Shown: positions 4,738 to 39,002, counted from the first letter of the stretch. The stretch is DNA of 64,000 bases from an uncultured Clostridia bacterium (GCA_947630145.1 CANRGL010000002.1:8437-72436), one strand, 5' to 3'. Numbers and translations: made by a program. The notes: generated by a model from the sequence alone, not told the origin.

Positions 4738-6129
4738 TTACATAGTAAGCACACCATTTTTACTATCAATTATAAGTAAAACTTTTTCCTCTTTACCAGT
4801 ATTTGCATTAATGTATATTAAAAACTCTCTATTATCAATTTTTCCTTTAAATTCATATGTTAGTATCTCAGTATTATATTCAGTAGGTATAATAGCTATA
4901 TCAGAAGATATTATTTCAATTTTGCTATTAATAGTCTTTCTTGCAACACTTTCTGATATTTTAGGTGTAATATTTTCCCTTAAAGTATGATTAAATATAT
5001 ATCCTCCTGCCTCTACTCCACAAATTTCTCCATCATCTAAAGCAACTTTTACTTTTACTAAATCAGGATATAGAAAAACTCCATCTTGCACTGCCGCGTA
5101 GTTTATAACGGCTATATTTTCTGTTTTTTGGTAATATGTATCTTTTACATCATCTATACCAATTTTTTTAAGAAACTCTAAACCTTTTTGCTTTGCTTCT
5201 TCTATACTTAATTTTTCTTCTTTTACTCTTTTATCTCCTATCATAAGATATAGCTTACAACCCTTTTTTGTAATACTTATACTTCTTTTTTTCTCTATAT
5301 TTTTTAAACTTACCTCAAAATTATATAAATCTATTCTTCCATTTGACTCTTCTTTTAGTTTTATATCTTCAACATTTTCTTCACCAAAGATTTCATTTAT
5401 ATACTTTTTTGCTTGATCTTCTGAGGTATCATAATCTTCTAAACTTTTAGGAGTCTGAGTTAAAATGTGGTCTGAAAACGCACCGTCATAAATTAATCCC
5501 TCATAATTTTGAAAGGCTTTACTTACCTTTGCAATACTTGACATACTTTCGCCAATTTGTATATTTGACAATTCTTCATTTCCTCTTTTTTCTAACTCAT
5601 CCCATTTTATTACTCCATCATTTAAATCATCATATATATCTTGCATAGATTTTGAAAGTTCTTGAGCTTTTCCATATATATTTTTTATACTATCATATTC
5701 TTCATCTGTTATTTTTTCTTCTGAAATATTTTGTTTCATCAAACTATATGAAAAATCACTTACTTGTGTAAGATATTTAGAAGCATTTGATAAAGCATTT
5801 TGAGAGACAGGTATTGCCTCTAAGCTCTCCTTTGCAAGATTTGCCTGTTTCCATATATCTGCAAGTGTTACTGATGTCATTTTTGGAGTTGAAGTAACAA
5901 GTAACTTTGCAAGATCTACCTCAACATTATTTATGTATGATACTGCAGAATACATTGATTTATTATATTCATCTTGCGTAGAGTTTTTAGCTCTTTTAAA
6001 ATTATTTGTCATTTCAAGTGAGAAAATTATCAATGCACCAAATATCATAAAAACTACTACTTTAGCAATTCTTGGGTCTATTTTTCTTTTTAATTTATTT
6101 ATTTTTATCTCTAATTTTTCTATCATCAT
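4738..6129 (-). CDS. ypeB: Germination protein YpeB
   Basis: 463 aa with an N-terminal membrane anchor and PepSY-like C-terminal half. 4-nt overlap with upstream sleB, as in Bacillus sleB-ypeB. Confidence 0.8.
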   Translation of the reverse strand: MMIEKLEIKINKLKRKIDPRIAKVVVFMIFGALIIFSLEMTNNFKRAKNSTQDEYNKSMYSAVSYINNVEVDLAKLLVTSTPKMTSVTLADIWKQANLAKESLEAIPVSQNALSNASKYLTQVSDFSYSLMKQNISEEKITDEEYDSIKNIYGKAQELSKSMQDIYDDLNDGVIKWDELEKRGNEELSNIQIGESMSSIAKVSKAFQNYEGLIYDGAFSDHILTQTPKSLEDYDTSEDQAKKYINEIFGEENVEDIKLKEESNGRIDLYNFEVSLKNIEKKRSISITKKGCKLYLMIGDKRVKEEKLSIEEAKQKGLEFLKKIGIDDVKDTYYQKTENIAVINYAAVQDGVFLYPDLVKVKVALDDGEICGVEAGGYIFNHTLRENITPKISESVARKTINSKIEIISSDIAIIPTEYNTEILTYEFKGKIDNREFLIYINANTGKEEKVLLIIDSKNGVLTM

Positions 6130-9408: not shown

Positions 9409-10236
9409 TTACATAAACATATAGATTTTTAAAATTATATATACTATAGGTGCAACAAATAATATGCTATCACATCTATCAAGTATTCCACCATGTCCTG
9501 GCATAAGTGTTCCAAAATCCTTTATTTTACAGAATCTCTTAATAGAAGATGCAGCCAAATCACCGAATTGGCCTACTATACTAGAAACTACTCCCATTAA
9601 TAATACAATATATATATTTAAATCTATTTTTAAATAATAATTAGATATAACATATATTACAATATATGATAATATTGTTCCTATAATACCTGCAACAAAT
9701 CCTTCAATTGTTTTTTTAGGACTTATATCAGGGCATAGTTTATTTTTACCAAACTTTCTTCCAAATAAATATGCAAAAGTATCACATGCAAAAGCACCCA
9801 TAATTACAAACCATATAAATAGTCTACCATTTTCCATCATAAGTATAAGTTTTAGAAACGAAAATAAAAATGGTATATAGAAAATTGAAAGAACTGATAT
9901 TGCTACATCAATTATATTAACTTTTAACTTAGTCAAAATTGCATATATAAATGTCAAAATTATAATTATAGGAATAAATATTTTAATGAACAATATTATA
10001 TTACTCGTACTTAAATTAAATTCAAATAAAAATATTGTAAAACAACTTAAATAGCTAAGTATTGGTACTAATTTATATCCTATAGATTTAAAAGCCTTGT
10101 TATATTCATAAATACCTAAAATTGATAGCAAAAATATAAATATTGTATCGATTAATGGAATATTTATCCACAATATTGATATAACTAAGGCTATAAGTAC
10201 TGTTCCAGTAATTACTCTTTTTTTCACTATACTCAA
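9409..10236 (-). CDS. cdsA: Phosphatidate cytidylyltransferase
   Basis: Polytopic membrane protein ending 'SxxKRxxxxKDxGxxxPGHGGxLDRxDS'. Confidence 0.9.
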   Translation of the reverse strand: MSIVKKRVITGTVLIALVISILWINIPLIDTIFIFLLSILGIYEYNKAFKSIGYKLVPILSYLSCFTIFLFEFNLSTSNIILFIKIFIPIIIILTFIYAILTKLKVNIIDVAISVLSIFYIPFLFSFLKLILMMENGRLFIWFVIMGAFACDTFAYLFGRKFGKNKLCPDISPKKTIEGFVAGIIGTILSYIVIYVISNYYLKIDLNIYIVLLMGVVSSIVGQFGDLAASSIKRFCKIKDFGTLMPGHGGILDRCDSILFVAPIVYIILKIYMFM

Positions 10237-14359: not shown

Positions 14360-15613
14360 ATGATAACAAGTTTTAGATTTGAAAATTGTTTTGCTTTTGA
14401 TAAGCAAGTAGAGATGGCTTTAAGAGCAGATATGAGGACAAAAAGATTTTCTTCAAATGTTTCAAATATAAATAAAAATATTAATGTATTAAAATCTGTT
14501 GCTATATATGGGCCTAATAATACTGGAAAAACAAGCTTTATAAATTGTATAAGAGCAATAAAAAGAACTTTACAAAATAGAAAAATAATGCTAAATGCTA
14601 ATATATTTACAAATAGTCCAATTTGTTATGAGTCTATTTCTTTTGTTTTTGAAGGCAAAGAATATTGTTATGAATATAAATTTGATTGTAATCAGCGTTC
14701 ATATATATATGAGAAAATGGCTGAAATAACAAGAGATCAGCATAAAAATAAAGGTGAAAATGTAATTTTTATAAAAGATACGATAAATGAACATTATGAA
14801 TGTCCATCGGACTTAAATTTACAAAATGTTTTAAATATAGCTTCTACAAATAATATTCTTATATATACAGTACAAATTGAAAAATTTGAAATTTTGCAAA
14901 AAATAAAAGAAATATTAACAAGTGTTGCTAGTAGTATAGAAATTGTTGATATGAATCATATTCCTAATTCAAAGACTATAGAAATGCTAAAAAATAGAAG
15001 TATGGAAACTAAAAAAATAGTTGACTTTATTAAGAATGCAGATATATATCTAGAGGACTATAGATATGAAGAAGATATACAATTTGAAATTGATGGAAAA
15101 GAAGCTGATGAAAAAGTTTTAAAAAATCAAAATTTTGTAGATCAAATAAAATTAGTTTCAGTTTACAAAGGGAAAGCAGTTCCTAGTATTATTTTTGATT
15201 CTTTAGGAACAAGAAAAATAGCAGCACTTGCTAGTTATGTAATAACAGCTATTGAAGAAGGAAAAACATTAATTGTTGATGAGTTAGACAGTAGCTTACA
15301 TTTTAAAATTACAAGAGCAATAATAAGTATGTTTAACAATGATATAAATAAAAATGCTCAATTAATTGCTACATTACATGACATTAGCTTATTAGATTGT
15401 AAAAAAATGTTTAGGAAAGAGCAAATTTGGTTTACAGATAAGAACGATAATGGAACAGAATTATATTCATTAAGAGAATTTAGCTATGATCAAGCAGGTG
15501 TTAGAGATACTACAGATATACAAGATAGATATAGCAAGGGAGCTTTTGGAGCTATACCAGATCCAGATTTAATTTCTACACTATTGGAGGTTGATATAGA
15601 TGAGAAAGTATAG
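14360..15613 (+). CDS. ABC-type AAA ATPase (AAA_15/AAA_21, COG1106-like), AbiLi/AriA-like
   Basis: Walker A 'GPNNTGKTS', Walker B 'LIVDELDSSLH', 'ATLHD', and C-terminal 'RYSKGAFGAIP'. Confidence 0.8.
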   Translation: MITSFRFENCFAFDKQVEMALRADMRTKRFSSNVSNINKNINVLKSVAIYGPNNTGKTSFINCIRAIKRTLQNRKIMLNANIFTNSPICYESISFVFEGKEYCYEYKFDCNQRSYIYEKMAEITRDQHKNKGENVIFIKDTINEHYECPSDLNLQNVLNIASTNNILIYTVQIEKFEILQKIKEILTSVASSIEIVDMNHIPNSKTIEMLKNRSMETKKIVDFIKNADIYLEDYRYEEDIQFEIDGKEADEKVLKNQNFVDQIKLVSVYKGKAVPSIIFDSLGTRKIAALASYVITAIEEGKTLIVDELDSSLHFKITRAIISMFNNDINKNAQLIATLHDISLLDCKKMFRKEQIWFTDKNDNGTELYSLREFSYDQAGVRDTTDIQDRYSKGAFGAIPDPDLISTLLEVDIDEKV

Positions 15614-16208
15614 TGGCAAGAAAATTTGTATTATCTGTGAAGGGTATGAGGAATTAGATTATATTGAAGCATTAAAAAATAAAGCTGTTTTTTCAAACAA
15701 GTATGATTTTATAACGGTTAATGCTAAGTCAATAAACACTATTATTGCAAGATATCAAGAAAAATACCAATCAGATTCATTTTCATTAGTATTAATATTT
15801 TGCGATACAGATAAAGGACCATCTGAAAAGTATAAGAAAATAAAACAAAAAATAAATGAATTTCATGAAGCAGATGTTGCAGATGACATTATTATATTTG
15901 GTAATCCGTGTACAATGCAAATCATACTTTCACATTTTGCAGAAATAAAATTAACTAGCCAAAGCAAGTCTGTAAATGCTAAATATATAAAAGAACTAAC
16001 AGGAATACAAAGTTACAAAGCAACAGATAAACAAAGAAAAGAATTATTTAGCAAAATCAAAAGAGAAAATTATGATGTAATGAAAGAAAATGTAAAAAAC
16101 TTATCTACAAATGATGAAGAACTATCTAGCACCAACATTTTAAGGTTTATTGAGAAATTTGAGAGTGATGATGATAGTTGGATAGATGAAATAAATAAAA
16201 ATTTATAA
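15600..16208 (+). CDS. RloB-domain (TOPRIM-like) protein, AbiLii-like partner
   Basis: N-terminal 'ICIICEGYEELDYIEAL' resembles the RloB 'CEGxxTExxY' motif. 14-nt overlap with the ATPase gene; GGAGG RBS. Confidence 0.65.
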   Translation: MRKYSGKKICIICEGYEELDYIEALKNKAVFSNKYDFITVNAKSINTIIARYQEKYQSDSFSLVLIFCDTDKGPSEKYKKIKQKINEFHEADVADDIIIFGNPCTMQIILSHFAEIKLTSQSKSVNAKYIKELTGIQSYKATDKQRKELFSKIKRENYDVMKENVKNLSTNDEELSSTNILRFIEKFESDDDSWIDEINKNL

Positions 16209-30400: not shown

Positions 30401-31195
30401 TTAAGTATTGTTTTTTATTAAATATATTTTAAAAATTTCTTTTAAGTAATCTATAAATTCAGATTTTTTCACAGATTCTGATAAAACTATATCACTTTCT
30501 CCTACCTTTTCATTAGTTTCTTTATTAAATATTTCAATTTTTCCAACGGCATCTGAAATGTTTAAAGGTGCACATATGTTATCATCAAATGTTATTTTTT
30601 CTATTGTATCTAATTTAGCTCCTTTATCAGATAATATAGAAATATCATCTTTTATGATAACTTGTTGCTTTTTACCAACACATTTATTTACTTTTATATC
30701 ATCCACTACAACATTTTTTTCACAAACTTTTTTTACTTCATAATTAGAAAATCCGTAATCTAATAACATTTTTGTTTCTTCTAATCTTACATTACTTGAT
30801 GGCGCTCTCATAATAACTGCAATAAAAGTAGTTCCATTTCTTGTGGCAGTACCTGATAAATTAAATAATGCCTGTGATGTTGAGCCTGTTTTTAATCCAT
30901 TTGCTCCCTCATAAAAACGTATTAATTTATTTGTACTATTAAGTCCAAAAGTTCCATTTCTTAAAGTATCTTGCCAAATAGATGTATATTTTAGTATATT
31001 AGGATGTTTGGTTATAAGTTCTCTAGACATTATTGCGATATCTTTAGCAGTAGTATAATGCCCTTCTTCATCTATTCCATGAGAATTTTTAAAGCATGTA
31101 TTTTCCATTCCTAATACTTTTGCTTTATCATTCATCATTTTAACAAAATTTTCTTCACTACCACCAATTTTTTCTGCAACAGCAACTGTAACATC
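30401..31195 (-). pseudogene. D,D-carboxypeptidase (PBP5/DacB/DacF-like), C-terminal part of a split gene
   Basis: The frame is open upstream of the listed Met: ...DVTVAVAEKIGGSEENFVKMMNDKAK.... Contains the 'LKTGST' KTG box and the C-terminal beta-sandwich domain. Confidence 0.85.
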
Positions 31196-31248
31196 TCTAT
31201 GGGTTAAATCATGCAGGAAAAAGTTTTATTACTATATATAATTTTTTA

Positions 31249-32547
31249 TTACAATAAATTTTTAATATATTCAATCATAAATAACGGAATATTAATTATT
31301 TTTCCATTTTTACTTAAATTATTCATAGAAAATCTAATAGATAAATCATTTTTAAATTTTTCATTATATCTTGTCAAACTTATATTATTAGTAGAAATAT
31401 TTGATTTTACTTCAATTGGAATTATATTATTTTTGTATTGCATAACAAAATCAATTTCGTGTCTATCAAAAGTAAAATAATTTGGAACTGTATTAAAAAC
31501 ATATACTAACATATTAAGTACATAATTTTCTGTAAAAGCACCTTTAAATTCTTCAAATAATTTATTTTTCTTTATAATAATATTACTATCTAAATTTGCC
31601 ATTTTCCTAAGTAATCCAATATCATTTATATATATCTTAAAACTACTTAAATCATAATATGCTTTAAGAGGAAAATCAGTTTTGTTTACATTATATATTT
31701 TATATATTAAATTTGCATCATTTAACCAATTTAGTGCACTTTCATATTCTCTTGCTCTAGCTCCTTGTTTTACTGTTTGATATAAGAATTTTTTATTTTC
31801 TTTAGCAAGTTGAGATGTTATACTATTCCAAATTAGTGAAATTTTATTTGCCTCACTATTTTCAGTATGTTTAGAAAAATCTGATTCATATGCAGTTAAA
31901 ATATCCTCTTGTATTTTTGTAACTTTTTCTATATCCTTTTCCATAATCCAAGAGTTTACTACTTCTGGCATTCCACCTATTATAAAATACATTTTTAATT
32001 TTTCTTCTAACTGATTGAAAAATATATCAGGAATATTATTTATACTATTAATTGATTTTAAGTATTCTACTAAATTTTCATTTCCATTTGCAATTAAAAA
32101 TTCACTAAATGTCATTGGATACATATTTAAAAAATCTACTTTACCAACAGGAAATGATGTGTGTGACAGTCTTATCCCAAGCAGACTACCAGCACATACT
32201 ATATGATATTCATTTGCTTCTTCGTTAAAATATTTTAGACTATTTAGTGCATCTGGACACTCTTGTATTTCATCAAATATAATTAAAGTTTTTTCTTTTA
32301 AAATTGCTTTACCATATATAAATGCTAATTGCTCTATTATTCTATTTGGAGATTTTGTATTTTTAAATAGATTATATAAGTCTTTATCATGATCAAAATT
32401 AAAATATGCTACTGATTCATAATACATATCTCCAAATTGTTTTAGTATATATGTTTTTCCAACCTGTCTTGCACCTTTTAAAATTAAAGGTTTTCTATTC
32501 TTACTTTCTTTCCATTTTATTAATTCGTCTAATATAAATCTTTTCAT
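31249..32547 (-). CDS. AAA ATPase with DUF4143 / nuclease-like C-terminus (AAA_14 family)
   Basis: Walker A 'GARQVGKTY', Walker B 'LIIFDEIQ', and a C-terminal 'EIDFV...PIEVK' PD-(D/E)xK-like motif. Confidence 0.8.
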   Translation of the reverse strand: MKRFILDELIKWKESKNRKPLILKGARQVGKTYILKQFGDMYYESVAYFNFDHDKDLYNLFKNTKSPNRIIEQLAFIYGKAILKEKTLIIFDEIQECPDALNSLKYFNEEANEYHIVCAGSLLGIRLSHTSFPVGKVDFLNMYPMTFSEFLIANGNENLVEYLKSINSINNIPDIFFNQLEEKLKMYFIIGGMPEVVNSWIMEKDIEKVTKIQEDILTAYESDFSKHTENSEANKISLIWNSITSQLAKENKKFLYQTVKQGARAREYESALNWLNDANLIYKIYNVNKTDFPLKAYYDLSSFKIYINDIGLLRKMANLDSNIIIKKNKLFEEFKGAFTENYVLNMLVYVFNTVPNYFTFDRHEIDFVMQYKNNIIPIEVKSNISTNNISLTRYNEKFKNDLSIRFSMNNLSKNGKIINIPLFMIEYIKNLL

Positions 32548-32655
32548 TTAATTTCTCCATTCCAGTTATATTATATACCATTTTCACATTTTTGTAAACA
32601 TTTTTTAATAAAAAATCACATTTTGACAAATAAAGTATAAAATTCAATCACATTT

Positions 32656-34182
32656 TTACAATTTAGAAAAGTTATAATAAACTTGTACATGTTCTTTAGA
32701 TATATCAATTCTATAAATTAGTTTATCTATTAATTCTTTGCTTATATTATTTCCTAATTCTTGTTCTTTATTTTTTAAAATATTTTTCAATTCAATAATA
32801 TCTTCATTTTCAAAATTCTTTTCTATAAATTCGCATTCTTTTATTTCAGCTTTTATTTCTTCTCTTTTAGCTTTTAAAGATTCTGTATTTTTTAAATATT
32901 CATTTTTAGTTATTTTTTCATCTAATAATTCCATATACATAAAGTCAATATTATCATTTATTCTATTATAATCGAAATTTAACTTTTTTATTCTTTTGCT
33001 TATACTTATTATATTATTTTCTTTCTTTTTTAAAAGTATTTCATTTTCTGCTTTAGAAAAATCAAATAAATTATTATAATGTTCTTTTATATTATCTAGT
33101 ATTTTCTTTTCTAACTTATAATAATTATAATAAAAAGTATCACAACAATGTATTTTAGATTTTGGACAAGATATATCTACTTGTTTTTCACTTCTTGTAT
33201 TAAATTGTACTTTTCTTCCACATTTTGCACAGTAAAGATAAGGTCTTAATAAATAGTTATATTTTAATCCTAAATTTTTTCCATTTTTAGACTTTATAAT
33301 TTCTTGTACTTTATAGAAAACATCTTTATCAATAATAGCTTCGTGCATATTTTCAGTAATAATCCATTCTTTCTCATTTGTTTTCTTTTTATATTTTGAT
33401 TTATATGATATTTTGTTTATAACATTTCTTACAACATTTCCTATATATACCTGATTTTTAAGAATTCTAAGTATTTGTGTACTTTTCCAAACTTTATAAG
33501 TATTCATATCTTTATATTGAATAATAATATTATAATATTCAGCTGGTGTCTTAATTTTTTTGTTATTTAAGTATTTAGCAATATAACTAAAGCTTTTTCC
33601 ATTTAAATACATATTAAATATTTTCTTTACTATATTACTAGAATATTTTTCTACTAATAGCTTTCCTTTATTATTAGGGTCTTTTATATATCCGTATGGT
33701 GCGTATGTTCCAGTATAAACTCCTTTTTCCATATTAGCTCTTTTACTTTTTTTCATTTTCTCTGATACATCTCTTGCAAACTTTTGGTTATTATATAATT
33801 TAAACTCTAAAAGTTCATTTGCAAGTTTATCTAAATATGTATCTACATTATCTAAAACTGCAATAAATCTAATATCATATTCAGGAAAAATTTTTTCTAT
33901 ATAATCTGCCCCATTTATAGATTCTCTTGCAAATCTTGATAAATCTTTTACTATTACAGTATCAATAACTTTATTTTTTATATCTTCTATCATTTGCTTA
34001 AAAGCAGGTCTATTAAAATTTGTTCCACTATATCCATCATCAATATATTCTTTTTTTATTTTAACACCAATATCTTCTGCATATCTAGTCAGTAATTTTC
34101 TTTGATTAGTAATACTCTCACTTTCAATTTTATCTCCATCTTCTTTAGATAATCTCATATATATACTTACATTATTAAACAT
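32656..34182 (-). CDS. Large serine recombinase (downstream copy)
   Basis: 'YMRLSKEDGDKIESESITNQR' catalytic Ser region, recombinase domain, Cys zinc-ribbon 'CAKCGRK...CPKSKIHCC', coiled-coil tail. Confidence 0.9.
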   Translation of the reverse strand: MFNNVSIYMRLSKEDGDKIESESITNQRKLLTRYAEDIGVKIKKEYIDDGYSGTNFNRPAFKQMIEDIKNKVIDTVIVKDLSRFARESINGADYIEKIFPEYDIRFIAVLDNVDTYLDKLANELLEFKLYNNQKFARDVSEKMKKSKRANMEKGVYTGTYAPYGYIKDPNNKGKLLVEKYSSNIVKKIFNMYLNGKSFSYIAKYLNNKKIKTPAEYYNIIIQYKDMNTYKVWKSTQILRILKNQVYIGNVVRNVINKISYKSKYKKKTNEKEWIITENMHEAIIDKDVFYKVQEIIKSKNGKNLGLKYNYLLRPYLYCAKCGRKVQFNTRSEKQVDISCPKSKIHCCDTFYYNYYKLEKKILDNIKEHYNNLFDFSKAENEILLKKKENNIISISKRIKKLNFDYNRINDNIDFMYMELLDEKITKNEYLKNTESLKAKREEIKAEIKECEFIEKNFENEDIIELKNILKNKEQELGNNISKELIDKLIYRIDISKEHVQVYYNFSKL

Positions 34183-35769
34183 CTAATTTATTAAATTAAT
34201 CTCCCTAAAATTAAATATTATTTCTATATTTTTATCTTTATCTATATATATTTTATCAACTAATCTATCTAAAGTTTCTCTTGAGATTTTTTTAGAAAAG
34301 TCCAAAGTTTTTAATACTTTTTTTAATGATTTATCATTTAACTTACTATCTTTTTCTTCATAATTTTTTTTATATTCACTTTTTAGATTTTCTAACGAAT
34401 CTTGAATATTTTCTTTTCTTTTTTTTAATAAATCTGATATTCTGTTATAATCCTCATCTGAAATTATATTATCTAGTTTATCTATATAAGACCTATCTAG
34501 TTTTTGATTGCATTTTTCAATTTCTTTTTCAAAGTTTTCTATTCTATTTCTATATTCTTCTAATTTTTTTCCTAATAAAGCTTTATTTTGAGCTCTAATT
34601 TTTGATAAATTTACACTATTTAAATATTTATCAACTATTTTATTTATTTCTGATAATATTTTTTCTTCTACATAATCATAATTAAAATATTTTTTAGTAC
34701 ATTTTTTTACTCCAACCTCCTTTATAGCTGTAGGACACATTCCATATCTTCTAATAGTTACTTTATCTTTATATTTTTCTTTTTTTGTCACCCAAGTGAT
34801 AGAACATCCACAATCTTTACATTTAACAATTCCTCTTAACAAATATTCGTATTTACTTATTTTACTTGATTTATTTGCCTCTAATTTTTTTAAAACTAAC
34901 TCAAAATCTTTTCTATTTATAATGGCATCATGAGTATTTTTTGTTACAATCCATTCCTCAGGGGGTAGATTTATTACTTTTTTGCTTTTATAATTTATTT
35001 TTCTTTGCTTATTAAGTACAGTATCGCCAACATAAACCTCTTTTTGTAAAATTCTTTTAACAACTGCCGGATACCATTGTTTAGTTATACTAGTACAATT
35101 TTTTCTATTTGTAGATGGAACATTAACCTTTTCCTCATTAAGTTTTTTTGCTATTTGATAAGTTCCCATTCCATTTAAAAACATATCAAAAATTCTTTTT
35201 ACAATTTTGCTTTCTTCTTCATTAATAATTAAGTGTCCTTTTTTATTTGGATCTTTCATATAACCAAATGGAGCTTCAACAGATACATATAGTCCATCTT
35301 TTTTCTTATTATATAACATTGCTCTAAATTTTCTTGATGTATCTTTACAGTATAAATCATTTAATACTGCTTTTAAAGGTAACATATCATCTGTTTCTGT
35401 TATAGTATCTACTTCATCATAAATAGCAATAAATCTAACATTATGTTCAGGAAAATATCTTTCTAAATATCTTCCTACTTCTGAATAATCTCTACCAAGT
35501 CTTGATAAATCCTTTACAACTACCATATTAATTTTATTTTCTTCAATTTCATTTTTTAACTCTAAAAATGCAGGTCTATCAAACTTGAGTCCTGAAATTC
35601 CATCATCCACAAATTCCTTATAGTTTTTCAATCCATTTTCTTTACAAAATCTTTCAAGTATATTTCTTTGATTAGTAATGCTCTCACTTTCGCTCTTATC
35701 TCCATCCTCCTTAGATAATCGTAAGTATAGTCCTACTTTGTAATCTTTGTTAATTTTAAAGATGTTCAA
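34183..35769 (-). CDS. Large serine recombinase (upstream copy)
   Basis: 'YLRLSKEDGDKSESESITNQR', 'CKDCGCSITW...CP' zinc ribbon, coiled-coil tail. TTG start after AGGAGGG preferred. Its stop abuts the next ATG. Confidence 0.9.
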   Translation of the reverse strand: MNIFKINKDYKVGLYLRLSKEDGDKSESESITNQRNILERFCKENGLKNYKEFVDDGISGLKFDRPAFLELKNEIEENKINMVVVKDLSRLGRDYSEVGRYLERYFPEHNVRFIAIYDEVDTITETDDMLPLKAVLNDLYCKDTSRKFRAMLYNKKKDGLYVSVEAPFGYMKDPNKKGHLIINEEESKIVKRIFDMFLNGMGTYQIAKKLNEEKVNVPSTNRKNCTSITKQWYPAVVKRILQKEVYVGDTVLNKQRKINYKSKKVINLPPEEWIVTKNTHDAIINRKDFELVLKKLEANKSSKISKYEYLLRGIVKCKDCGCSITWVTKKEKYKDKVTIRRYGMCPTAIKEVGVKKCTKKYFNYDYVEEKILSEINKIVDKYLNSVNLSKIRAQNKALLGKKLEEYRNRIENFEKEIEKCNQKLDRSYIDKLDNIISDEDYNRISDLLKKRKENIQDSLENLKSEYKKNYEEKDSKLNDKSLKKVLKTLDFSKKISRETLDRLVDKIYIDKDKNIEIIFNFREINLIN

Positions 35770-35839
35770 ATAATCCCTCCTAACAAAGCTACTTATCAAT
35801 AAAATGATATATTATTCTAGTTTTAAAAGTCAATTCCTT

Positions 35840-35935
35840 TTAAGAATCTAATTCTTTTAAAAGAAGTTCCTCTATAATTTCTTGAAAAGTAGGACCATTA
35901 TCATTAAATTTATATGTTACATTATATTCATCCAT
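35840..35935 (-). CDS. Tiny ORF (31 aa) upstream of the recombinase pair
   Basis: MDEYNVTYKFNDNGPTFQEIIEELLLKELDS, with a GAGG-like RBS. Below the ORF-track cut-off. Confidence 0.3.
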   Translation of the reverse strand: MDEYNVTYKFNDNGPTFQEIIEELLLKELDS

Positions 35936-36197
35936 TTTCTGCACCTCTCTACATATTATTAAAATTTAATATTTTTAGAACATTACTTTTTATTTCTTTC
36001 TTTTTCTAATCTTTTCAACTCACTATATATTTTGTTTACAATCTTCTTTCAGGATTTCTTCTTTTTTACATATTTTAAAATTAAAAGCAATATAATTAAT
36101 GGCATTTCCAAATTGAAATTGTGTTTTATAATTATATATATTTTTTAATGTACAATGAAAAGATTTTTAGTGTCTTTACTATTACACGTTACATTTA

Positions 36198-36226
36198 TTG
36201 AACTTTTTATATTCTTTTGTTATAAT
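36198..36226 (+). promoter_or_regulatory. Sigma-A-type promoter for the Nudix gene
   Basis: TTGAAC, 17-nt spacer, TATAAT. It lies inside the long version of the track ORF, which favours the ATG at 36254. Confidence 0.6.
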
Positions 36227-36253
36227 ATTGAATATTATATAGGAGTTTTGATT

Positions 36254-36739
36254 ATGGAAGATATTGAAATAAGAATTAATAATAAAAAGTTTAAGTATAG
36301 GGTTAATGGTATAGTTTTGAAAAACAACAAAATTCTAACATTAAGAATGAAAAATAATATATCATATTGCTTACCAGGTGGACATGTAGAACTAGGTGAA
36401 GACAGTAATTCTGCAATTATTAGAGAAATGCTTGAAGAACTAGATACAAAAGTTACAATAAAAAAAGAACTTGCAATGGTAGAAAATTTTTACAAAGATA
36501 AAAATAATTTACTGACTCATGAAATAAGCTTTTACTATATTGTTGTTCCTGAATCTTTTTCTAAAATACCCTTAGAAAATTATTCAAGATCTGAACATGA
36601 TAAAGGGCAGTTAAAGCAACATAATTTTGTATGGTTAAATTTAGACAATATAACAGACTTTGATTTTAGGCCATCATTTATTAAAGATAAGCTAGTTAAT
36701 AACAATTATGATTTTGAACATATTATAGTAAAAGATTAA
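36254..36739 (+). CDS. Nudix hydrolase
   Basis: Nudix box 'GGHVELGEDSNSAIIREMLEELD' (GX5EX7REUXEEXGU); AGGAG RBS. Confidence 0.85.
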   Translation: MEDIEIRINNKKFKYRVNGIVLKNNKILTLRMKNNISYCLPGGHVELGEDSNSAIIREMLEELDTKVTIKKELAMVENFYKDKNNLLTHEISFYYIVVPESFSKIPLENYSRSEHDKGQLKQHNFVWLNLDNITDFDFRPSFIKDKLVNNNYDFEHIIVKD

Positions 36740-36986
36740 TAGCTATATTTTCTTTTATCTAATAATTTTTTTATTTGAAGTTGCTGTAAAAAAGTCCAAT
36801 AAAAAATTAGGTTTGTATCAAAAATATGATATAAATCTAATTTTTTGATCTTATATTTATAATATAAATAATTTTTATTGATATATTTCTTTTTTTGATA
36901 CAACAAAAGGGGACTTTTTTACACCCCCTTCTAAATTATCAATACTTTCAACAGATATATTTGTATACTTTGTTTTGCTTTATTCT

Positions 36987-37484
36987 TCAATTTTCATTAT
37001 TATTTTTTTCTTTTATTATATCTTTTATAAATTCTGGTAAATTGGTAAATGTAGCTACTATACCTTTATTTGTAAGTGCAAATATATCTCTTGTTTTTTT
37101 ATTTATTTCTTCCTTTACTGCTTTAGGGACTTTAATAGATATTCCTGCTTTTTTATATTCTTGCTCTATGTATTTCTCTAAAGTTGGAAACATATTTTGA
37201 ATTAGAAAAACTGCTTTTTTCCCAGCTAAATTTCTTGCAAAGACAAAATTATTAGGTTCTATACCTTTTTTCAATTTAATATCATTATATACTTTTAAAT
37301 ATTTATCATATTTAGAAGACATTGGCACAAACCATAATATGTTTTTGTCTGTTTTATCTCTAAAACAAAAATAAGTTGGCCTTTTTGTACCAGTTTGTTT
37401 ATTTTCCATCAAATGATATTTTTTATTATACTTATTTATAAACTCATCCTTTATAAAATATAATTTTCCCTCAGTTATTTCCAT
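36987..37484 (-). CDS. ToxN/AbiQ/CptN-like endoribonuclease toxin (type III TA)
   Basis: 'KLYFIKDEFINKY...', '...ILWFVPMSSKYDKY' and 'LIQNMFPTLEKYI' parallel ToxN 'KFYTISSKYIEYL', 'YLAPLTSPK' and 'INLKFMIPIIE'. About 165 aa. Preceded by a repeat RNA plus terminator. Confidence 0.6.
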   Translation of the reverse strand: MEITEGKLYFIKDEFINKYNKKYHLMENKQTGTKRPTYFCFRDKTDKNILWFVPMSSKYDKYLKVYNDIKLKKGIEPNNFVFARNLAGKKAVFLIQNMFPTLEKYIEQEYKKAGISIKVPKAVKEEINKKTRDIFALTNKGIVATFTNLPEFIKDIIKEKNNNEN

Positions 37485-37499
37485 TTTACTCCTCATACA

Positions 37500-37626
37500 A
37501 TAATAAGGGAGTACTAAACTCCCTTATTTATTCACCAGTGTATTTTCTCTTTGCCAACTGGGTGGCTGTTATATCGTTTATCTAGGGTATTTTACTCTTC
37601 GCCTCCTAGTAGGCAGTTTTATTTAT
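37500..37626 (-). ncRNA. Candidate type III antitoxin RNA: two divergent ~47-nt hairpin repeats plus terminator
   Basis: Unit A CUAGG-AGGCGAAGAGUAAAAUAC-CCUAG; unit B CACCCAGU-UGGCAAAGAGAAAAUAC-ACUGGUG. The loops are conserved and the stems covary. The own promoter is upstream; the hairpin ends 6 nt before the toxin RBS. Confidence 0.5.
37502..37528 (-). terminator. Hairpin between candidate antitoxin RNA and toxin ORF
   Basis: 11-bp perfect stem 'aataagggagt'/'actcccttatt' with a 5-nt loop. The U-tract is weak. Confidence 0.5.
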
Positions 37627-37632
37627 ATAATA

Positions 37633-37661
37633 ATTATAGCATTTAATTGTTCAATTGTCAA
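37633..37661 (-). promoter_or_regulatory. Consensus sigma-A promoter driving the RNA-toxin module
   Basis: On the minus strand: TTGACA (37661-37656), 17-nt spacer, TATAAT (37638-37633). Confidence 0.7.
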
Positions 37662-37840
37662 TAATTTTTAATAATATTTCTATAATTATTATATATTATA
37701 TGATATGAAACTTATAAATATATAATACGAATATTTTTAATTTTTAAGTAATTTTATAAGTAAATTATATTTTTTACAATTTTCAACTTTGATAAATAGC
37801 TTATTTTCAATATTTTCTTTCCTGCTAAAATTTAACATAC

Positions 37841-38286
37841 ACATCATTTGCAGAAACTACACATATTGCTTTTAGAGCTTCATCAACTGTCAGTTCTTCA
37901 TTTTCTTTAAACCATATTTGAGATCCTCCCATTTTTGAAGCTTTAGTACTACATTTTATTTTATCTTGATATGTCATTTTCCCAGAATCTATTTGTTCCA
38001 TAGTAAGTAACAATGTCATAATCTTTGTTACAGATGCTGGTAATAATTTTTCATTTTCATTATTAGCATAAAGTATTTCTCCTGTTGTAGGCTCCATTAA
38101 AACTTGTGCTTCTGATTGAAAAGAAAATTCAGGATTACTTGCAAGTGTGCTTATACTACTTGCTTTTGTTTCTTTATTTTTATTTATAGGATACATATAT
38201 GTTGCAAATACAAAATTACCACTTAATAAAAACAACATAAACAAAGCTATACTTATTTTTTTTATTTTAAATATCAAATCAATCAC
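37841..38286 (-). pseudogene. D,D-carboxypeptidase, N-terminal part of the split gene
   Basis: Signal peptide, SxxK 'SVTK' and SxN 'SAND'. After ...SANDV the frame runs into the element (YVKF*). Confidence 0.85.
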
Positions 38287-38402
38287 CCCAAAAAAAAGAA
38301 TAATATAACTATTACATTATATTATTCGACTTAATTTTTATGTATATATATTCTTATTTTCAAGAAAATGAGAGTTATAAGCTCTCATTTTCTAATTATA
38401 TT

Positions 38403-38903
38403 TTATGCATCTGCACCAGTTGGTCCTTGTGGTATAGTTAAATTAAGAACAAAATTTGGTGCACTTCCTTCAATTGTTGCAGCAGCCTGAGTACCTGGCA
38501 AACCAGTTGTAACTTGACCTATTGTAATACTTGGAGTAAGTCCATCAGTACCGGCTGGCCCTTGTGGTCCTTCTGGACCTATTGCACCTTGAGGTCCTAC
38601 CGCACCAGTTGCACCTTGTGGACCTGTTGGTCCTTGTGGTCCTTGAGGTCCGGCTGGTCCTGTTGCTCCTGCTGGACCAGTTGCCCCAGTTACACCATTA
38701 GCTCCAGGTAATCCTTGTAATCCTGGAACACCTTGTGGACCTGTTGGTCCAATTGGTCCAGGAACACCTTGAATACCTTGAACACCTTGAGGTCCTGTTG
38801 CACCAGTAGGACCTGTCATACACATTACTCCTGTTGGAGTAGGACAAGGATTAGGAAAAGGTCTACAACCACCCATAAAATCACAAGAATTGTAGTTATT
38901 CAT
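38403..38903 (-). CDS. Collagen-like triple-helix repeat protein (BclA-like)
   Basis: About 30 uninterrupted GXY triplets ([16 protein letters not shown]...), a Cys/Pro-rich N-terminus and a short non-collagen C-terminal domain. Confidence 0.8.
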
Positions 38904-39002
38904 TTAAAATCCTCCTTTATAATATAGTAAAAAATTACTATATTATAATTTATGCCTTCATACTACAATGTGTGAATATCTTTATTTTCACTTAACACTT
39001 AA

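Follow-up and report, generated by a model that had tools for sequence, protein, structure and literature searches.

Does an insert that splits a D,D-carboxypeptidase gene in a putative spore former serve to rebuild that gene on cue, as skin does for sigK, or has a mobile element simply landed in it? The question is raised by a 64,000-nucleotide stretch of DNA from an uncultured Clostridia bacterium (GCA_947630145.1, CANRGL010000002.1:8437-72436; the whole stretch is referred to below as the window), in which a single gene of the minus strand (dac), encoding a D,D-carboxypeptidase with Peptidase_S11 and PBP5_C domains, is cut in two by an insert of 6,650 bp. An initial annotation of the locus had put forward the first answer as plausible. 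The evidence presented here argues for the second: we take the insert for a site-specific integrative element, small and not of phage type, that has disrupted a dac gene which is probably dispensable, and put the probability of this reading at roughly two in three.

The split dac gene and its insert

In the integrated state, the open reading frame (ORF) of the N-terminal half of dac (38286 to 37825) reads through ...CVVSAND into five foreign codons (...VYVKF) and stops at 37825, and the frame of the C-terminal half (31195 to 30401, minus strand) reads DVTVAVAEKIGG...KTGST... (Table 1). The split falls one codon past the SxN motif (S145-A-N147/D148). The pentanucleotide ACATC stands at both junctions, where the initial annotation had noticed it, and since the flanks of attL and attR differ on either side of it, the crossover can be placed within GATGT, as the repeat reads in the orientation of dac. 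Deletion of 31196-37845, or equivalently of 31191-37840, keeps one copy of the repeat and yields an in-frame protein of 411 residues that reads ...SANDVTVAVAEK... across the join; the expected rejoined attB sequence is ...tctgcaaatGATGTtacagttgct.... The restored frame of about 411 residues had been foreseen in the initial annotation and the empty-site string ctgtaacatcatttgcag had been given correctly, but the interval proposed for removal (31196-37840; 6,645 bp) was 5 bp short, so that both repeats would be retained and the frame shifted.

The joined protein matches Peptidase_S11 (1e-65) and PBP5_C along its entire length (Pfam) and unites SVTK, SAN and KTG in one chain, with Pfam and PDB alignments spanning residues 50-391, as in S11 D,D-carboxypeptidases. 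Both halves were run by tblastn against 80 related loci (denoted by L numbers). Intact orthologs (L001-L013, L019, L065 and L069) proved colinear with the join: no residue is gained or lost, and residue 148 passes to 149 without a gap. The two minus-strand ORFs had been taken for halves of one gene, with alignment to intact homologs named as the check; given the full-length domains and this colinearity, the assignment stands, as does the description of a serine-recombinase insert that is bounded by a short core repeat, has inverted att arms and would rebuild the gene on precise excision. The G+C content of the insert is 22%, compared with 25% for the window.

The core of the insert is a tandem pair of large serine recombinases (LSRs), LSR1 and LSR2, which are 36% identical to each other. 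Both have Resolvase and Recombinase domains, and LSR1 alone of the two has Zn_ribbon_recom (Pfam); the motifs 'YLRLSKEDGD' and 'YMRLSKEDGD', with the R-x-S of the nucleophile, mark them as members of the class, and both match the PHROG 95 integrase (1e-99 for LSR1 and 3e-95 for LSR2). The inverted blocks TATG / TTAAAT / GCAGGAAA described earlier at the ends of the insert are real: they are kept in every related element examined and hence are not due to chance. The 31-residue ORF upstream of the recombinases has no PHROG match and is a candidate regulator or directionality factor. A prophage is not indicated, as the PHROG matches of the insert are limited to the integrase, the NUDIX protein and one family of unknown function, with no structural, packaging or lysis genes among them; nor did IMG/VR yield a match for the element, either with the attP junction pattern or with the left arm.

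Further cargo includes a CptIN-family type III toxin, which scores above the NCBIfam equivalog cutoff (NF047359, 1.6e-38, 131.9 bits against a cutoff of 90). As in known CptIN systems, it lies behind a promoter, short repeats and a terminator: a perfect sigma-70 promoter, TTGACA-17-TATAAT (37661 to 37633), about 1.6 imperfect copies of a unit of about 48 nucleotides (37603 to 37526; a weak assignment made by eye) and a terminator hairpin (37525 to 37505). In contrast to those systems, the repeats are few and imperfect; TRF calls no array, and nothing between 29 and 40 kb matched Rfam at E<=1. The antitoxin is putative.

Related elements and their spread between hosts

A scan of the genome collection with the joined Dac protein placed the host among metagenome-assembled genomes (MAGs) of uncultured gut Clostridia, with names such as Clostridium sp. 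CAG:465. Related elements occur in about ten host lineages of such MAGs, always at this dac codon and with unrelated cargo. Two species representatives, L014 and L015, have dac split at the identical codon and carry an orthologous LSR pair with 59% and 64% identity to that of the window. With the LSR1 protein as query, 13 clusters at 55-100% identity form a sharply delimited orthogroup, after which identity drops to 46%; in every cluster whose context was read (P0121, P0122, P0124 and P0127, the last three comprising 35 contigs), LSR1-LSR2 is found immediately upstream of the 258-residue C-terminal half of Dac. A 20-nucleotide probe from the left arm gave eight matches in the JGI metagenomes. 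Four were true, all adjoining the N-terminal half of Dac, in one case in a host whose Dac is merely 55% identical; the remaining four were chance matches in unrelated GC-rich DNA. The behaviour is that of a site-specific integrative element: all occurrences are in dac after SAN-D, the att arms are conserved, and L006 provides an empty site for the element of L088.

Pairwise blastn of five elements showed conservation of only the left end and a 3.35-kb module (the 31-residue ORF, promoter, LSR1 and LSR2), to which the junction alignment adds the right att arm (~30 bp). The left end, on the side of the dac N-terminal half, is 90% identical over 79 bp to those of the L014 and L088 elements, the recombinases of which are only 59-71% identical; in L014, the equivalent region precedes a RepA_N gene. 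The cargo of L014 is of the type found in integrative and mobilisable elements (IMEs) or integrative and conjugative elements (RepA_N, DUF3846, RadC, ArdC-N and a cell-wall hydrolase). Another set combines a restriction-modification/helicase cluster with a Tn916-type regulatory pair of sigma70_r4 and HTH_16, the pair being carried by both L085 and L092, and other sets contain Zeta toxin, radical-SAM and IS66 genes or Spo0A-like regulators. Of all the elements seen, that of the window is the smallest, and it alone has a gene wedged between LSR2 and the arm, which encodes the PDC-S01 ATPase absent from other family members. It has lost the RepA_N, ArdC and RadC genes of its larger relatives and is therefore a stripped-down, probably non-autonomous derivative.

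Proteins with Response_reg and Spo0A_C domains, resembling Spo0A, are encoded in the DNA upstream of the recombinases at L092:3472-4185 and L095:3938-5176, together with sigma70_r4 proteins and cell-wall hydrolases. These genes are presumed cargo, the far ends of both elements being unseen, and hint that the elements may interact with the sporulation programme of the host.

The elements have moved between hosts. L014 and L015 have recombinases 99.4-99.8% identical, whereas between the C-terminal halves of the dac genes in these two hosts 63 of 786 nucleotides are different (~8%); L092 and L093 share the LSR1 protein and have dac genes differing at 60 of 783 nucleotides. The uninterrupted dac of L006 is 0-1 nucleotides apart from the occupied copies of L088-L091; empty and occupied sites therefore coexist within one species. 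The distance matrix of the LSRs does not agree with that of Dac: for L092 and L014, for example, the nonsynonymous divergence (dN) is 0.025 in Dac and 0.23-0.25 in the LSRs. Vertical co-divergence of element and host is rejected by this incongruence and by the near-identical elements in diverged hosts, and the family is horizontally mobile rather than co-inherited. LSR1 and LSR2 have matched dN and a ratio of nonsynonymous to synonymous divergence (dN/dS) of 0.13-0.32, indicating purifying selection on both; because they diverge in step under such selection, the pair appears to work as a unit.

A mechanism may be proposed on these grounds. The co-evolving tandem pair LSR1/LSR2 would recombine attP with an attB of ~25-30 bp. 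The former would consist of the arms TTTCCTGCA..ATTTAAC and GTTAAATTTTAGCAGGAAA around the GATGT core, with an expected junction sequence of ...atttaacccatagaGATGTgtatgttaaatttt..., and the latter would be the part of a DacF-like D,D-carboxypeptidase gene that specifies its SxN active-site motif (...tct gca aat GAT GTt ac...). Integration would split dac and inactivate it; reversal by the same recombinases would be precise, with or without a directionality factor, a role that the 31-residue ORF might fill. Among the serine recombinases of IMEs, the best-characterised one integrates and excises without such a factor (PMC5704250). The variable middle is occupied by stabilising and anti-phage genes, represented in the window by the CptIN type III toxin-antitoxin system, the PDC-S01 ATPase and the NUDIX protein. 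The host would tolerate the insertion because the low-molecular-weight penicillin-binding protein (PBP) lost is most likely dispensable. In B. subtilis, dacF is dispensable, and disruption of dispensable genes by serine-recombinase IMEs is established biology.

Table 1. Coordinates of the split dac gene, the inserted element and comparable sites in related loci. Positions without a locus number are those of the window.
Feature	Position	Strand	Basis or remark
dac promoter region: ACATAAA-N15-TATAATGTAATA, then palindrome and ribosome-binding site	38287..38345	-	
dac N-terminal half: signal peptide, SVTK, SAN, ...CVVSAND; codons 1-147 and first base of D148	37846..38286	-	
Core repeat copy 1, attL crossover region; ACATC on + strand, GATGT in dac orientation	37841..37845	.	
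Element end beside dac N-terminal half: att arm gtatgTTAAATtttaGCAGGAAAg and ~55 bp conserved in the family	37761..37840	-	
Putative type III antitoxin region: promoter, repeats, terminator	37505..37661	-	by inspection
CptIN-family type III toxin, 165 aa from ATG after GAGGAG ribosome-binding site	36987..37484	-	NCBIfam
NUDIX hydrolase cargo gene	36155..36739	+	Pfam NUDIX 7.8e-10; PADLOC PDC-S07 9.5e-12
Conserved 31-aa ORF MDEYNVTYKFNDNGPTFQEIIEELLLKELDS, upstream of recombinases	35840..35935	-	called in every family member
Sigma-A-like promoter TTGACT-N18-TATCAT before LSR1	35804..35833	-	conserved in five diverged elements
LSR1, large serine recombinase, 528 aa from conserved TTG after AGGAGG; ORF extends to 35799	34183..35769	-	
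LSR2, second large serine recombinase, 508 aa, abuts LSR1	32656..34182	-	
AAA_14/DUF4143 ATPase, PADLOC candidate defence gene PDC-S01 (4e-175)	31249..32547	-	between LSR2 and att arm
Element end beside dac C-terminal half: att arm TTTCCTGCatgATTTAAcccataga	31196..31225	-	conserved in L085, L088, L014, L092
Core repeat copy 2, attR; ACATC on + strand, GATGT in dac orientation	31191..31195	.	
dac C-terminal half: V149 to stop; KTG motif, PBP5_C domain, amphipathic C-terminus	30401..31190	-	
Other dac-splitting serine-recombinase elements, 26-45% identical or less	L073:360-470 and 9930-10060; L066:2120-2250; L077:9930-10060; L017:1380-1530; L067:2100-2260 and 5850-5960; L094-L096:11150-11760		
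Extra base (frameshift) in dac of relatives	L006:1418-1445; L014:218-245; L088:1277-1304		

Insertion weighed against developmental excision

Several known systems resemble the element in part. Tn4451 with TnpX, Tn5397 with TndX and the streptococcal IMEs in rumA likewise have an LSR at one end, a gene-disrupting site-specific insertion and variable cargo, and TndX is the nearest annotated homolog of the window recombinases, at only 31-35% identity. Unlike these, the window element has two recombinases instead of one, no relaxase that could be found, and dac as the target. With the staphylococcal cassette chromosome (SCC) and its CcrA/CcrB recombinases it shares a diverged tandem LSR pair evolving as a unit, small size without conjugation or phage genes, one conserved chromosomal site, a short direct repeat with imperfect inverted repeats, and swappable cargo. 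Membership in that group was rejected, since the CcrB model gave 121.7 and 79 bits against a cutoff of 900, the CcrA model 67 and 49 bits against 700, and the target is dac. SCC inserts at the 3' end of rlmH (orfX) without destroying the gene, whereas the window element cuts its target at an active-site motif. By these comparisons, the architecture is SCC-like and the ancestry resembles that of clostridial LSR integrative elements.

The sporulation intervening elements skin (sigK), SPbeta (spsM), vfbin (spoVFB), vrin (spoVR) and gin (gerE) are also serine-recombinase elements that interrupt a coding sequence in a spore former, which the present host probably is as well; the 5-bp core with inverted repeats and the restoration of an ORF by precise excision are further likenesses, and gin, as the window element, is small and not a prophage (PMC5595907). 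The window element differs from this group in its two recombinases, its clear recent horizontal transfer and the lack of a sporulation-type promoter on the recombinase module.

The initial annotation had placed the insert in this group. The element would then be retained in the germ line and excised in the mother cell only, by LSR1/LSR2 with a sporulation-controlled factor, and dac would be rebuilt for cortex maturation. Part of the evidence agrees: a coding sequence is interrupted and its frame can be precisely restored, in silico only, and all interrupted dac copies seen have both halves free of new lesions. The host, an uncultured MAG lineage, looks like a spore former, judging from yabP/yqfC and yqfD, encoded in the window along with PSP1/yaaT, and from the adjacent collagen-like gene (38403-38903; BclA-like, with collagen repeats), which is preceded at 38946-38973 (minus strand) by a perfect promoter of the sigma-K type, AC-N17-CATAAATTA. 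That gene suggests an exosporium-type protein and a sporulating host. In the dac promoter, ttCATAAA-N15-TATAATGTAATA, both blocks and the spacing are constant in 15 orthologs, and the -35 block matches the sigma-E 'kmATA' in 12 of the 15, only four having the initial G of the forespore type. Signs of the regulation expected for developmental excision are otherwise not apparent. The -10 block is TATAAT, the sigma-A hexamer, without the CATA of sigma-E/K promoters; consensus matching of the promoter to sigma-F/G, sigma-E/K, sigma-H and sigma-A gave no clean assignment, and a local calibration of sigma-E promoters on yqfC was unconvincing. The spmAB genes are not adjacent to dac. Neither the recombinase module nor the 31-residue ORF has a conserved CATA-type (sigma-E/K) motif, the sole conserved promoter being sigma-A-like; this point is not decisive, however, because the listed sigma-E-controlled component of C. 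difficile skin is CD1234, a gene of the skin element.

The affinity of the target also bears on the compartment in which dac would be needed. PDB and NCBIfam searches assigned the protein to none of DacA, DacB and DacF, and the Bacillus genes retrieved by the window Dac are dacF, in dacF-spoIIAA-spoIIAB-sigF operons; one such DacF scores 280 bits (41% identity), compared with 132 bits for B. subtilis DacB (PDB 3mfd). The dacF gene belongs to the forespore, where function could not be restored by an excision that takes place in the mother cell. In C. difficile, the sporulation-controlled S11 carboxypeptidases belong to the sigma-F and sigma-G regulons (PMC3789822). With the CATA of sigma-E/K promoters lacking from both promoters, the DacF affinity, the horizontal transfer with an element tree incongruent with that of the hosts, the cargo of defence and addiction genes and no empty-site or attP junction found in the collections searched, skin-like excision in the mother cell appears improbable to us, and simple insertion, named in the initial annotation as the alternative, is the better-supported reading.

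An immobilised relic, that is, a copy fixed in the species that no longer excises and leaves dac dead, would account for the occupation of the same position in all eight of the eight contigs bearing the window LSR, for the lack of an intact allele above 82% identity in the protein database, for the loss of RepA_N and other accessory genes and for the extra gene between LSR2 and the att arm. We nevertheless find it rather unlikely, as the LSR ORFs, att arms, promoter and 31-residue ORF are all intact and the dac halves lesion-free, the window copy even being without the frameshift of its relatives (see below). Very improbable is a reversible germ-line switch, in which excision in the forespore or in a vegetative subpopulation would release a non-replicating circle that re-integrates, turning a DacF-like enzyme on and off in the manner of comK active lysogeny. 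The DacF-like affinity of the target and the empty and occupied alleles with identical dac in one species would suit such a switch, as would the efficient integration of LSRs without cofactors; yet the attP junction was found nowhere in the JGI metagenomes or IMG/VR, and the window element has no replication function.

The reading of the insert as an integrative element in a dispensable gene has its own difficulties. No excised circle or attP junction was found with a family-wide pattern in the JGI metagenomes or IMG/VR, the left arm being absent from the latter as well, and no relaxase, oriT or transfer genes were identified in the window element. An empty-site allele of this exact species was not found among 5.8 billion proteins, the best intact one having 82% identity, and for this reason we infer the mobility of the window copy from its relatives. 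Strong purifying selection on dac across the clade (dN/dS 0.05-0.2) is awkward for a dispensable gene and counts in favour of a skin-like element. Lastly, insertion into dac is not confined to this family: a sister clade of LSR pairs and no fewer than three further LSR lineages share the target, which recalls sigK and other developmentally rebuilt genes. Some form of developmentally timed excision is, all told, unlikely.

dac as a recurrent target, and further features of the locus

The sister LSR clade, with 45% identity to LSR1, is common in gut metagenomes; it is likewise a tandem pair and lies after ...AVVSAND in the opposite orientation. Single LSRs of ~26% identity split the dac genes of 'Bacilli' and Erysipelotrichaceae MAGs at the same GAT/G position (L073, L066 and L077). 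Further LSR lineages cut inside SxxK (L017) or ~12 residues before KTG (L067, L068 and L072). No report of dac-interrupting elements was found in the literature; new here are the dac/SxN target, the use of two recombinases as a unit in Clostridia and the fact that several LSR lineages have converged on dac. It is conceivable, if unlikely, that dac is an unrecognised 'rearranged' sporulation gene and that LSR elements at its SxxK, SxN and near-KTG codons are excised on cue in many uncultured gut Firmicutes; a cortex-maturing carboxypeptidase would then be rebuilt in the mother cell or, if DacF-like, in the forespore with re-integration. In the common family that splits dac in the opposite orientation, the second recombinase was seen broken into pieces of 107 and 386 residues. 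At L094:11217-11300, a run of N falls exactly on the junction of element and dac, which is unreadable there.

The dac genes of relatives show a peculiarity of their own. In at least six independently assembled species (L006, L010, L014, L017, L019 and L088) and in the metagenome loci L098, L099 and L101, one extra base is found at the same place: the relatives read GAT TCN C GGN AAR where the window (~37975-37990) has GAT TCT GGG AAA in frame. Both sides of the shift are under purifying selection (dN/dS 0.05-0.18 in the frameshifted set). Read in the +1 frame, the Gly codon is GGA, GGT or GGG, all synonymous; in the zero frame, every one of these genes has CGG, a codon with 0 occurrences among the 13,854 host codons of the window. 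Many Dac 'fragments' of 307-312 residues in the protein database correspond to the part after the shift. Rather than the mark of a pseudogene, this looks like a candidate case of programmed +1 frameshifting, in which the ribosome would shift at CGG, an unused, 'hungry' codon.

Upstream of dac, the -10 block lies in the palindrome gaATAATATAAtgtaatagTTATATTATTc (38287-38330, minus strand), the position of which shifts in orthologs such as L007, yet the palindrome persists. The sequence TGTCGAA, similar to a Spo0A box (0A box), is found just upstream in the closest relatives only, and the region may be an operator. A hairpin (38363-38393) separates the collagen-like gene from dac. Elsewhere in the window, an agr-like locus (~46.3-49.4 kb; AgrB, a SPOB_a/HATPase_c_5 kinase and a LytTR response regulator) adjoins yqfC/yqfD, and at 14360-16208 (plus strand) an AAA_21/AAA_23 ATPase of 417 residues overlaps a 202-residue partner that has no Pfam match, among housekeeping genes; the latter pair looks like a two-gene defence module.

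The family described here provides a compact integration module of two recombinases, arms of ~30 bp and a 5-bp core, and its natural attB encodes SxN in a widely conserved gene; the recombinase pair, whose att sites are defined, is a candidate tool for genome engineering. In gut Firmicutes, serine-recombinase elements have settled repeatedly in genes of low-molecular-weight PBPs, and the elements carry anti-phage and addiction genes among species of a clade that is uncultured and poorly known. If excision should prove developmentally timed, a new gene and a two-recombinase mechanism would join the short list of programmed sporulation rearrangements; and if dac is rearranged on cue, this would be a widespread developmental DNA rearrangement, the first to be driven by a two-recombinase unit.

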